From a virus: a DNA stretch of 64,000 bases. Below, in pieces: positions 2,510 to 59,646 of the stretch. Positions within the stretch are counted from its first letter, which is position 1. Each line of letters begins with the position of its first letter. The stretch is from positions 3,021 through 67,020 of the IMG/VR virus record IMGVR_UViG_3300042887_001434; one strand, given 5' to 3'. A program made the position numbers and the translations under genes. The notes under the pieces were generated by a model. That model was given only the letters and a program-made list of their open reading frames with translations, was not told the origin of the DNA and made no database searches.

Positions 2510-3694
2510 TTACGAGCAAGTCGAGTAGATTGTTGCTGGAGTGCAACGCTGATGCATGATTGCATAACCCCATTCAGGACGCTTAACTTGCGAACCTTGC
2601 ATGAACAATGCAAAGAAGTAGCCATTGATTCCAAGAATGTTGTCGATGTTATCCTTGTTGTTGATCCAAGTGAACTCACCACGATAGTTAACAGGATCGA
2701 ATTTCAATCCGCTACCAGGGCTAGTAATAACTTGAGCAACACGGGATGTGTAGACATTCGGGTTGTAGATGAAGCTAACTTCGTAAGGAGCCGAGCGATA
2801 AGCAGGGTTCACTACGGATTTAAGTCCAGTCGAAGCTGCGGCAGTCGTGAAGAATGGCACACGAACAAATGCACCACCAACGAAGTCGTAGCGAGGAGCT
2901 TGACGATCAACCAAGTGAACGAAACCACTGTAGCTGAATGCAGCACCAAATGGCTTGATTAACTCATCGACCTGAGAAGAGAAGCGAAGATCCTGACGGA
3001 TGTCTGCATTCTGTTTCTTGAGATAGTTGCTGGTTTCTGGCGAGCAGATAAGAGCATACTGAGGTTCACCATCAACCATTGCATAATGACCTTCTGCGGC
3101 ATCGCGGCTCAGATCGAGATAGAACTGATCTAAGATACCTTGATCCAATGCAAACAAAGGAGCAACGGATGGGAATGGTTGGTTAGTTCCAGATGTGGAC
3201 ATAGACAAAGAATCAGCAACATCGAGAACAACTTTGTTACCAGAGAGACGAGAGAACTCATCACGATAACGATTGCTCCAGAACCACTGAGAATTCTCTT
3301 TAAGAACTTTAACTTCACCAGCAAGCTGCTCTTCAGCTTTCCATGCGGTACGAAGATCGTTCACACAGAAGCCAGGGCTACGAATAGCAGCCTGTTGAAG
3401 ATTGTAGCTACGAAGAGTACGGGCAAAATCAACAACCTGTGGAGTTGGGCTACAGGAGTTGCCAGTGCCAGTGTTCGTTCCAACGTCTGCCCATGCTGTA
3501 GATCCAGCATCAGGAACAGTGGAGCGTTCTTGAACTAAAGTTTGAATAGTTTCACCCATTCCAGCAGGAAATGTATCCTGTTTGATGAGGCGATTCCATG
3601 GATCAGTTGCGATCAGTTTAGCGGAGATCATTTCTCCGATACGACCAGCTTCTTGCTGAAGCTGATTATTTACGTTATTTAAAGGTACGGACAT
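2510..3694 (-). CDS. Major capsid protein (putative)
   Basis: 394 aa, in portal-scaffold-capsid order, codon usage suggesting high expression, long leader and downstream hairpin. Confidence 0.8.
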   Translation of the reverse strand: MSVPLNNVNNQLQQEAGRIGEMISAKLIATDPWNRLIKQDTFPAGMGETIQTLVQERSTVPDAGSTAWADVGTNTGTGNSCSPTPQVVDFARTLRSYNLQQAAIRSPGFCVNDLRTAWKAEEQLAGEVKVLKENSQWFWSNRYRDEFSRLSGNKVVLDVADSLSMSTSGTNQPFPSVAPLFALDQGILDQFYLDLSRDAAEGHYAMVDGEPQYALICSPETSNYLKKQNADIRQDLRFSSQVDELIKPFGAAFSYSGFVHLVDRQAPRYDFVGGAFVRVPFFTTAAASTGLKSVVNPAYRSAPYEVSFIYNPNVYTSRVAQVITSPGSGLKFDPVNYRGEFTWINNKDNIDNILGINGYFFALFMQGSQVKRPEWGYAIMHQRCTPATIYSTCS

Positions 3695-58224: not shown

Positions 58225-58488
58225 ATGAAGTGTCAGAATTGTAGTGGAAAATTAGAAACTATCGAAAGCAGATCGCTTGAAACTAACGATGGTATAAGTT
58301 TTGTTAGAAGAACTAAAAGATGTAAGAATAAGCACTTGTTTATCACACATGAAATGACATTAGATATTTCTCCAATCCCTGATATTTACAGGGTGAAGAG
58401 AGTTAGGAAAGCAAACAAACCAAAACCAAAAAAGATCCATTCCTTAGACTGGGTTGAGCGCATACAAAATAAACTAAATGAACTATAA
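58225..58488 (+). CDS. NrdR-like zinc-ribbon protein
   Basis: MKCQNC...IESR...VRRTKRCKNKHLFITHE. Confidence 0.7.
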   Translation: MKCQNCSGKLETIESRSLETNDGISFVRRTKRCKNKHLFITHEMTLDISPIPDIYRVKRVRKANKPKPKKIHSLDWVERIQNKLNEL

Positions 58489-58828
58489 TGAATTCGTAAA
58501 AGCACTATTGAAATCTGGTGATCAAATCAAAAATGAACTGACTCCATCAGAGTGTCACCTAATCCACATGACTCTTGGGTTAAGCGGGGAAGCTGGAGAA
58601 TTGTTGGATGCAGTCAAGAAGTCAACGATCTATCGCAAGCCACTAGACATGGAGAATGTGTTAGAAGAACTTGGTGACATTGAGTTCTTCTTGGAAGGGT
58701 TTCGTCAGTCAGTAGGACTAACTCGTGAGCAATGCATTGAATCTAACGTAACAAAGTTATCAACTAGATACCACAAGCTGTCATATTCCGACAGTCAGGC
58801 GCAAGAAAGAGCAGACAAGAATGTTTAG
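58478..58828 (+). CDS. MazG-like nucleotide pyrophosphohydrolase
   Basis: LGLSGEAGELLDAVKK...EELGDIEFFL...N..KL..RY. Confidence 0.85.
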   Translation: MNYNEFVKALLKSGDQIKNELTPSECHLIHMTLGLSGEAGELLDAVKKSTIYRKPLDMENVLEELGDIEFFLEGFRQSVGLTREQCIESNVTKLSTRYHKLSYSDSQAQERADKNV

Positions 58829-59084
58829 GTCTAAAAAACCTATGAATAAAGTTTCTTCTAAACACAAGAAGAAGCTCATGGAATATTCCAAGATAAGAAA
58901 AGAGTACATGATGCTACATATGTTTTGCGAAGTTTGTGGTGTTCCAGCAACTGACATCCATCACAAAGAACGCAGGGGGTTGAATATGTGCAACGCCGAA
59001 ACATTCATGTCTGTGTGCAGACAATGCCACATGAAAATAGAATCGAACGGCAAGTGGGCTAGGGAAATGGGATACCTTGTATGA
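58821..59084 (+). CDS. HNH-like zinc-binding protein
   Basis: CEVC...ATDIHHK..RG...VCRQCH..I. Confidence 0.8.
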   Translation: MFRSKKPMNKVSSKHKKKLMEYSKIRKEYMMLHMFCEVCGVPATDIHHKERRGLNMCNAETFMSVCRQCHMKIESNGKWAREMGYLV

Positions 59085-59545
59085 CTGAAGTTGAACTTCG
59101 TAAAATGTTCCCTAATGCCTCTAATGGATTTCTGAAGGCAAACCATGGGTCTTTCTATGAAAACATCGTGGAGAGGCGTATAGCGCAAAAGAAGTATGAA
59201 TTAAAAGATGAACTCAATAAAGATAACTATAAACTACAGGACTCCTTCGTTGAATGTAACAAAGCGTCAGCATTGGGCAGTCCAACTAAAAGAAAAAAAG
59301 ATAGCATGGGAGGCTTGCAGGAAAGGGTGCGAATCAAATTCACAGGTCACAGGGTCAAGCCCCTCGATCCAGACAACTTTGCTGGATCAGTTAAAGACTG
59401 CCTCGATTTTCTCCATAGAAGCGGGATTATCGAAGGCGACGAACCATGGAAAATCATCCTCGAAACAGACCAAGAAAAAGTTAAACATTACGAAGAAGAA
59501 AAAACTGAAATAGAAATTCAATATCCTATTGACTATTTTAATTAA
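59081..59545 (+). CDS. RusA-like Holliday junction resolvase, catalytic frame
   Basis: LDPDNFAGSVKDCLDFL..SGIIEGD matches the RusA D-x-DN-x-K-xxx-D motif. Confidence 0.8.
   Translation: MTEVELRKMFPNASNGFLKANHGSFYENIVERRIAQKKYELKDELNKDNYKLQDSFVECNKASALGSPTKRKKDSMGGLQERVRIKFTGHRVKPLDPDNFAGSVKDCLDFLHRSGIIEGDEPWKIILETDQEKVKHYEEEKTEIEIQYPIDYFN
59208..59513 (+). CDS. Overlapping ORF encoding a RusA-like N-terminus
   Basis: IKITINYRTPSLN....HW....KEKK..W; A_AAA_AAG at 59294-59300. Confidence 0.6.
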   Translation: MNSIKITINYRTPSLNVTKRQHWAVQLKEKKIAWEACRKGCESNSQVTGSSPSIQTTLLDQLKTASIFSIEAGLSKATNHGKSSSKQTKKKLNITKKKKLK

Positions 59546-59612
59546 TTAGTTAAATTAACCACGCATCATTCGTTTCGTGTTCTGATGGTGCGTTTATGTT
59601 ATGTGTTCATTG

Positions 59613-59646
59613 GAAGGGAGGGGGTTGTTCCCCTCCCTTCTCTTTT
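59613..59646. terminator. Strong hairpin terminator between convergent operons
   Basis: GAAGGGAGGGG/CCCCTCCCTTC 11-bp stem plus TCTTTT. Confidence 0.75.

Follow-up and report, generated by a model that had tools for sequence, protein, structure and literature searches.

A RusA-like resolvase domain divided between two overlapping reading frames in a freshwater phage and its relatives: a conserved layout and a possible two-chain enzyme

The window analyzed here, a stretch of 64,000 nucleotides (nt), covers positions 3,021 to 67,020 of IMG/VR record IMGVR_UViG_3300042887_001434, a virus record of 67,020 bp that has direct terminal repeats, and the sequencing runs that contain near-identical sequence come mostly from lake and freshwater metagenomes. 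It contains two overlapping open reading frames (ORFs), here termed ORF A and ORF B, of which B is nested in the +1 frame of A, and both are open over the whole overlap (Table 1). ORF A encodes the catalytic part of a RusA-like Holliday junction resolvase, and ORF B encodes the part of the fold that precedes it. The original prediction, made from the letters of the window, had described a RusA resolvase gene split over two overlapping frames, with the start codon of ORF A coupled through ATGA to an upstream HNH gene and with an A_AAA_AAG heptamer in the phase of frame B; these features and their coordinates are all correct, and 76 related loci are divided alike. We think it probable that the resolvase is encoded as two separate chains that assemble, with no need of recoding.

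Table 1. Features of the overlapping gene pair, in window coordinates.
Feature	Positions	Strand	Remarks
ORF A	59081-59545	+	154 amino acids; stop 59543-59545; N-terminal motif, linker, RusA-like C-terminal half
N-terminal motif of ORF A	59096-59143	+	L..mFPNAS..FL.AN; relatives with ..SF..lNPqL variants
ORF A linker	59144-59323	+	open, without protein constraint; overprinted on the N-terminal half of B from 59208
ORF A C-terminal half	59324-59542	+	residues 82-154; predicted β2-α2-β3-β4; DPDN at 59366-59377, K105, D109, D120-E121; frame under selection
ORF B	59208-59513	+	101 amino acids; stop 59511-59513; nested in the +1 frame of ORF A
ORF B N-terminal half	59208-59330	+	residues 1-41; predicted β1, PSLN..HW loop and helix α1; frame under selection
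PSLNVTKRQHW motif	59244-59276	+	frame B
A_AAA_AAG heptamer	59294-59300	+	phase of B, within an A7 run; GAA AAA AAG at 59292-59300; clade-specific, not conserved
Dual-coded junction	59324-59330	+	B G40 and C41 (last α1 codons) over A R82 and V83 (first of β2); 7 nt here, 19 nt in the 80-nt class
ORF B tail	59331-59510	+	by-product translation of the ORF A C-terminal half; S/T-rich, then a K/R-rich basic end; stop-free in all relatives
Terminator-like hairpin	59612-59641	+	13 pairs, G+C-rich, T run after it; 67 nt past the ORF A stop

Conservation of the two-frame layout and the frame under selection

Of 121 candidate homologues of ORF A, 106 proteins reach E ≤ 0.01, and many of them span 92 to 97% of its length. 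Their alignment falls into three parts, namely a conserved N-terminal motif, a variable linker and a strongly conserved C-terminal stretch of 70 residues. DNA was fetched for 76 related loci, comprising 14 viral loci, 61 metagenome loci and one locus from the genome of a Chthoniobacteraceae bin, the one locus that a scan of genome contigs gave; the distribution takes in soil, freshwater and other metagenomes besides this Verrucomicrobiota genome bin. The loci were found by patterns of the C-terminal half, without selection for the presence of frame B. The N-terminal half nevertheless lies in the +1 frame of the C-terminal half in all 76: three-frame translation reveals in every fetched locus the string ..L.V.YRTPSLNVTKRQHW.., which is nearly invariant, and after it ..EK.KAF.AL.SAL, both read in +1 relative to the ORF A homologue. 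Both motifs were found in this relation by regular expression in 72 of 77 sources and by eye, among 16 printed loci, in the rest, which have variant residues or are cut by the end of a contig. Measured from the W codon of the B motif, the first D of DPDN lies 80 nt away in 60 loci, 92 nt away in 11 loci, including the clade of the window, and 77 nt away in one; the distance is always 2 modulo 3 and never in frame in the 72 loci scored by regular expression. The layout is old, with A-frame identities down to about 35% and G+C contents from 0.39 to 0.62. A tree of the joined halves is poorly resolved, with 104 columns and with 37 of its 74 inner branches open. In its best form it requires three or more state changes for the 56 split rows, although the split may also have arisen once.

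The frame on which selection acts changes within the overlap. Across the 80-nt class, represented by 43 unique sequences, the per-column entropy peaks at the wobble positions of B from -63 to +44, counted from the W codon, and at those of A from +47 on. The clade of the window (eight sequences, six unique) behaves in the same way: of nine variable sites in 59208-59323, eight are synonymous in B and none in A, and of 11 variable sites in 59331-59545, nine are synonymous in A and two in B. The overlap, in which the original prediction had suggested a check of synonymous-site constraint, is thus selected in frame B over the former segment and in frame A over the latter. Because the frame of selection switches in this manner, the stretch of ORF A that looks conserved but is modeled as disordered (P.P.R..APALG) is, as read from the sequences, a shadow of frame B. 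Between +38 and +56 both frames are constrained, reading R-x-x-V-R-F in A and A-L-x-x-A-L in B, and the wobble positions of the CGC and TTT codons at this junction are nearly fixed (entropies 0.27 and 0.00) because the same bases are the second positions of the Ala and Leu codons of B. The spacing of the window, longer by 12 nt, shrinks this overlap of helix and strand to the short junction listed in Table 1.

These patterns bear on two simpler explanations. The conservation of the N-terminal motif and the fact that gene callers predict ORF A as a protein in more than 100 records might suggest that ORF A works alone, as a truncated RusA-like nuclease with a new N-terminus, and that frame B is an untranslated relic or a chance ORF. 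Purifying selection, however, acts on frame B and not on A over 59208-59323 and the equivalent positions of the relatives, and P, S, N, H and W of the B motif are invariant in 49 sequences that are 35 to 65% identical in A. Furthermore, the region of A that lies over the N-terminal half of B is modeled as disordered, and the RusA fold is incomplete without β1 and α1, all of which makes a solitary ORF A very improbable in our estimation.

The other explanation is an indel, either introduced by sequencing or assembly in the A7 homopolymer or fixed by a recent inactivation that left a pseudogene. Homopolymer runs are indeed error-prone, and hybrid ORFs with frame changes elsewhere do occur in metagenome gene calls: P0102, P0121, P0122, P0127, P0152 and P0252 are chimeric, passing from A to B, or from B to A after DPDN, and are probably indel errors or dead copies. 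Against an indel at the present locus, eight of eight assemblies from the clade of the window keep the A7 run, and contigs assembled from three DNA runs, which belong to three studies, cover 59050-59560 without any letter gained or lost. The same offset is found in all 76 related loci, although the majority of them lack a homopolymer at this place, and both halves are under purifying selection. The chance that the split is an artifact or a fresh lesion is practically nil, in agreement with the earlier view that a sequencing indel explains it poorly. A different irregularity was seen in locus L006, at positions 1-300, the end of a 42-kb viral contig, where a partial copy of the C-terminal half (..RLTVRFTGHRVRPLDPDNFAGSCKDLLDGLR) runs into the N-terminal motif of a full copy; it looks like a terminal repeat or an assembly wrap-around through the gene.

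The two halves of the RusA fold and their single-frame relatives

Residues 78-147 of ORF A match PHROG 1682, "RusA-like Holliday junction resolvase" (E = 3e-4). Among its 106 homologues, 74 match phrog_1682 and 71 match phrog_34. D96, D98, N99, K105, D109 and D120 are invariant in the 106 sequences. The AlphaFold model of ORF A has a confident β-α-β-β core at residues 83-147, whereas residues 46-79 fall below a predicted local distance difference test (pLDDT) score of 50. The core can be superposed on residues 52-118 of Escherichia coli RusA over 66 residues with Z = 5.0 and a root mean square deviation (rmsd) of 3.0 Å, in a tie with unrelated small β-α-β-β folds. From these PHROG matches and this alignment of the model core, ORF A is therefore predicted to carry just the C-terminal half of the RusA fold. 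Other searches were less responsive: neither ORF A nor ORF B matched any Pfam family at E ≤ 1; two of the 106 ORF A family members match Pfam RusA (PF05866), with a best E value of 0.071 and below its gathering score; Foldseek with the ORF A model, half of which is disordered, returned nothing at E ≤ 0.001; and a sequence search of the PDB with the ORF A family profile yielded no RusA, the weak rows being unrelated. The N-terminal motif of ORF A, modeled as two short helices with a pLDDT of about 78, has no match in Pfam or PHROG. It reads with the ORF A frame in the window and most loci and with the B half in P0124 and P0127.

The N-terminal half of ORF B by itself found no match in PHROG, and its tie to the RusA-like families comes through single-frame relatives that match them over their full length. 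A word-index search with ORF B had returned other B-type ORFs only and no single-frame relative, but a profile of the N-terminal half of B, run against 1.84 billion representatives, gave 160 matches at E ≤ 0.001. We inspected 150 sequences, namely 147 newly listed matches together with P0107, P0111 and P0113 from the earlier search. Thirteen have D.DN in the same frame as the B-type N-terminal half; single-frame relatives named here are P0229, P0177, P0232, P0242 and P0250 and, with an N-terminal extension, P0180, P0181 and P0204. The other 137 lack D.DN and are mostly B-type ORFs with by-product tails, accompanied by a few hybrids or spurious repeats, and at least six of them (P0183, P0197, P0206, P0219, P0230 and P0235) are single-frame proteins with D.EN. 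Four proteins that match the same profile, P0147, P0172, P0218 and P0256, consist of tandem KLTVNYRVPS-like or VPSLRVL.AQHW-like units; they may be repeat-derived ORFs, eukaryotic or other, and look unrelated to RusA.

The single-frame protein P0229 connects both halves with RusA. Its predicted structure, with a pLDDT of 90, has strands (E) and helices (H) in the order E2-8, H14-19, H22-39, E51-59, H65-81, E93-101 and E108-115, and the top seven Foldseek matches are all E. coli RusA (E = 1.7e-5, TM-scores 0.73-0.80). Superposition on 1q8r_A by VIA gives Z = 11.5 and an rmsd of 2.9 Å for 110 of 117 residues, the next match having 5.7, and the modeled fold is unmistakably that of RusA. Residues 4-114 match the RusA-like PHROG 1682/34 (E = 2.6e-7), and the match to Pfam RusA, at 16.2 bits, lies below the cut-off of 22.8. 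A search with P0229 found just two relatives, and a sequence search of the PDB with the single-frame profile gave no RusA, with weak rows that are unrelated. Residues 2-43 of B align to residues 1-42 of P0229 (hhalign 99.1%, E = 1.7e-18), and residues 75-148 of A to residues 47-115 (hhalign 98.8%, E = 8.7e-17), so that each half encoded in the window is homologous to one half of a single-frame protein. The RusA fold is accordingly one of the composite of A and B only, predicted indirectly by way of P0229. The single-frame PSLN..HW proteins differ from the split form in their one frame and in a loop of 10-13 residues between α1 and β2 that the split form lacks. By hand count in four of them, the distance from W to D is 41-45 residues, made up of the 18-residue helix, this loop and a β2 segment of 14 residues.

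The catalytic acidic residues of E. coli RusA are D70, D72 and D91, with a nearby Lys. The fold shared with P0229 is that of E. coli RusA in PDB entries 1Q8R, 2H8C and 2H8E, and ORF A has an acidic D-x-D-N cluster and a later D/E that may be the counterparts of these residues; the PDB title "RusA D70N" marks one such Asp. E. coli RusA is, in contrast, one chain of about 120 residues, whereas the fold here is spread over two ORFs that bear in addition an N-terminal motif, a linker and a tail.

Possible frameshifting at the junction

A conserved offset of -1 between two halves of one domain invites an explanation by programmed frameshifting from B to A, which would produce a single-chain RusA, by way of A_AAA_AAG in the window and an unrecognized noncanonical site elsewhere, possibly with three products as in the IS3 family. 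A_AAA_AAG is the -1 programmed frameshift site of dnaX and of the IS3/IS911 family, where, as in the window, an in-phase heptamer lies between two overlapping ORFs and their fusion would unite two domains. In favor of such a shift, the heptamer has the correct phase both in the window and in eight of eight assemblies of its clade, the shift required is -1 in every relative (80, 92 or 77 nt; 72 of 72), and the long open frame of B with the separate start of A resembles the OrfA/OrfB/OrfAB pattern.

The wider set of loci does not bear out a role for this site. A canonical X_XXY_YYZ heptamer occurs in the phase of B between W and β2 in eight of 62 unique sequences, five of which belong to the window clade, and the same class occurs in the other two phases in seven and 13 of the 62, which amounts to no enrichment. 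Of the two features whose conservation the original prediction had proposed to check, the dual frame is kept in all 76 loci and the heptamer is not, and the -1 slip at A_AAA_AAG that it had proposed as the mechanism finds poor support. In this AT-rich phage the heptamer probably arises from the coding of E-K-K and is incidental. No stimulatory structure that is conserved emerged either: RNAalifold with 46 sequences, in which pseudoknots were not searched, gave a single helix of five pairs (-1.2 kcal/mol), and the 90 nt downstream of the heptamer in the window fold with z = -1.58, 13 of 200 shuffles being as good, in keeping with the earlier remark that no strong hairpin is obvious. A stem of 10 pairs is possible in the window from 8 nt 3' of the heptamer and might be counted in favor of a slip. 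The near-invariant C-GCT-TTR block was considered separately as a U_UUR slip site and rejected, since dual coding is a sufficient explanation for it and GCA TTG stands in its place in two lineages.

The product of a slip is a further difficulty. A slip at 59300, within E-K-K, would replace residues 32-41 of B, the conserved A-[FW]-x-A-[LC] half of α1, which holds six of the eight α1 residues set against α2 in the docking model described below, and selection on frame B, in the 80-nt class, extends to +44 and beyond. With one -1 slip, W and D would be separated by 26 residues in the 80-nt class and by 30 in the window, which is 11-19 residues fewer than in the single-frame relatives and leaves out the α1-β2 loop. 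In the 80-nt class the last six codons of the helix and the first six of the strand share nucleotides, and because of these shared nucleotides and the short spacing a single-slip fusion cannot contain both the whole of α1 and the whole of β2; the dual-coded junction requires two readings of the same bases. Compared with dnaX and the IS3/IS911 family, the heptamer here is not conserved, the search for a conserved stimulator gave none, translation in the zero frame would not end shortly after the heptamer, and the fusion would lack conserved structure.

"RusA/RuvC" stands among the phage genes flagged for frameshifts by the predictor PRFect, in an aside that cites a 1991 ruvC paper (PMC10885494), and the frameshift mentioned in PMC7911831 is an unrelated one of a tail chaperone. 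A full-text literature search, covering the main texts of papers, turned up no account of a RusA-like gene that is split or frameshifted. Taking the evidence on both sides together, we regard a programmed -1 frameshift as unlikely.

Proposed assembly from two chains, the locus and its meaning

The proposal that the halves complement each other in trans, raised as one option in the original prediction, is the reading we favor, on the grounds of frame selection, the single-frame relatives and docking. ORF B would start at its own ATG inside ORF A and supply β1, the PSLN..HW loop and α1, followed by the overprinted tail, and ORF A, starting at the ATG coupled to the HNH gene, would supply the N-terminal motif, the overprinted linker and β2-α2-β3-β4 with DPDN. 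The two chains would then associate noncovalently, with β1 beside β4 and α1 on α2, to rebuild the RusA fold, and by analogy with RusA the complex might dimerize and cut branched DNA in replication or packaging. In 41 of 55 unique loci B has an ATG of its own, placed 20-23 codons upstream of W; in the remaining 14, the first ATG is further upstream in 12, and none is contained in the available sequence in two (L006 and L068). The occurrence of the N-terminal motif in either frame would suit a complex that accepts it on either of the two chains.

Residues 78-154 of A and 1-44 of B, each with its own alignment, were docked in three runs with three controls. The scores were 0.66, 0.66 and 0.42, against 0.02 for the best of the controls, and this mark is reached by 58 of 80 solved complexes and by two of 110 mismatched pairs. 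The runs share at least 46% of their contacts, with a partner pLDDT of at least 45, and predict contacts of B 1-16 with A 140-150 and of B 29-41 with A 98-114, that is, β1 by β4 and α1 on α2, as in RusA.

Several points weigh against this reading. That both ORFs are translated and that their products assemble into an active nuclease is what we infer. Because RusA has been solved as one chain, the docking pass may reflect likeness to the solved single-chain structures, or the memory of the model, rather than binding. Inspection of the sequence before the ATG of B reveals no clear or consistent Shine-Dalgarno sequence. The perfect in-phase A_AAA_AAG of the window may well cause some fusion product to be made, and programmed frameshifting is the classical explanation where a frameshift between homologous halves is conserved.

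A further point is the tail of B, which assembly from two chains leaves unexplained. In 50 of 50 unique loci frame B runs on without a stop for 44 or more codons beyond the junction, where 14.9 loci would be expected from within-gene synonymous shuffles, and its stop falls within about 60 nt of the stop of A. For comparison, 304 of 1082 windows (28%) taken from other long ORFs of these loci are open. In the region of the tail, V, L or I codons that end in a purine before an A-starting codon number 0 of 146, a value that is zero by construction as the region is defined as open; in safe contexts of the same region, 108 of 196 V, L and I codons end in a purine, from which roughly 1.5 stops per locus would be expected. 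Frame A, for its part, is open over the N-terminal half of B in every one of 61 unique segments, where synonymous shuffles would lead one to expect 44.8, which makes sense if the N-terminal motif must stay joined to the C-terminal half. In all these counts the loci are related rather than independent trials, although synonymous sites are largely saturated. Possible reasons for the open tail are a functional basic tail, the tethering of the nascent N-terminal half to the mRNA until the C-terminal half is made, or a part in recoding of an unrecognized kind. A mechanism that embraces the tail would be recoding without a canonical heptamer, for example a backward re-reading of the 7-19-nt dual-coded junction that yields a single-chain RusA alongside A and B, or else, without recoding, two extensions kept open in order to tether the nascent chains on one mRNA for cotranslational assembly; we consider this decidedly unlikely. 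If a trans-frame product were made, it would represent a new recoding family in phage DNA-repair genes.

Assembly of two chains encoded in overlapping frames has precedents. The embedded gene pair Rz/Rz1 of phage lambda encodes spanin proteins that form one complex. XLalphas and ALEX are reported to be two interacting proteins encoded in overlapping frames of one transcript (PMC1186735). In both cases, as here, one ORF is read in +1 relative to its partner and both are selected, with binding in the present pair being a prediction. In contrast to them, the products here are halves of one ancestral domain, and each ORF is open across the functional half of the other.

The gene pair forms the end of a tightly packed rightward block (58225-59084) with overlapping start and stop codons. 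The start codon of ORF A overlaps, as ATGA, the stop codon of an HNH endonuclease ORF at 58821-59084 (PHROG 740, E = 1.5e-9), which is preceded by a MazG-like pyrophosphatase at 58478-58828 (PHROG 229, E = 1.4e-28) and an NrdR-like zinc-ribbon ORF at 58225-58488 (Pfam, E = 4.6e-4, under the cut-off). The hairpin separates the gene pair from convergent genes on the minus strand and probably serves as a bidirectional terminator. Searches of the 67-kb genome with Pfam RusA (at E ≤ 1), RuvC and endonuclease VII gave no other match, and the pair is therefore its sole candidate junction resolvase among those three families. In a phage collection, blastn found a MazG fragment and nothing else. The 3' part of the gene pair (59387-59560) is matched, with four differences, by a contig of 226 bases from the library of a freshwater metatranscriptome; this shows presence in an RNA library only and gives no indication of transcription, strand or slippage.

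Gene callers and annotation pipelines miss pairs of this kind, and databases list ORF A as "hypothetical protein". The locus also carries a caution, in that programmed frameshifting does not follow from a conserved frame offset and a perfect slippery heptamer alone. If the resolvase is indeed made as two chains, it would be a widespread and old case of a small enzyme domain divided between nested frames, and would offer a natural system for studying how overlapping genes originate by fission and overprinting and how partners made from one mRNA find each other.

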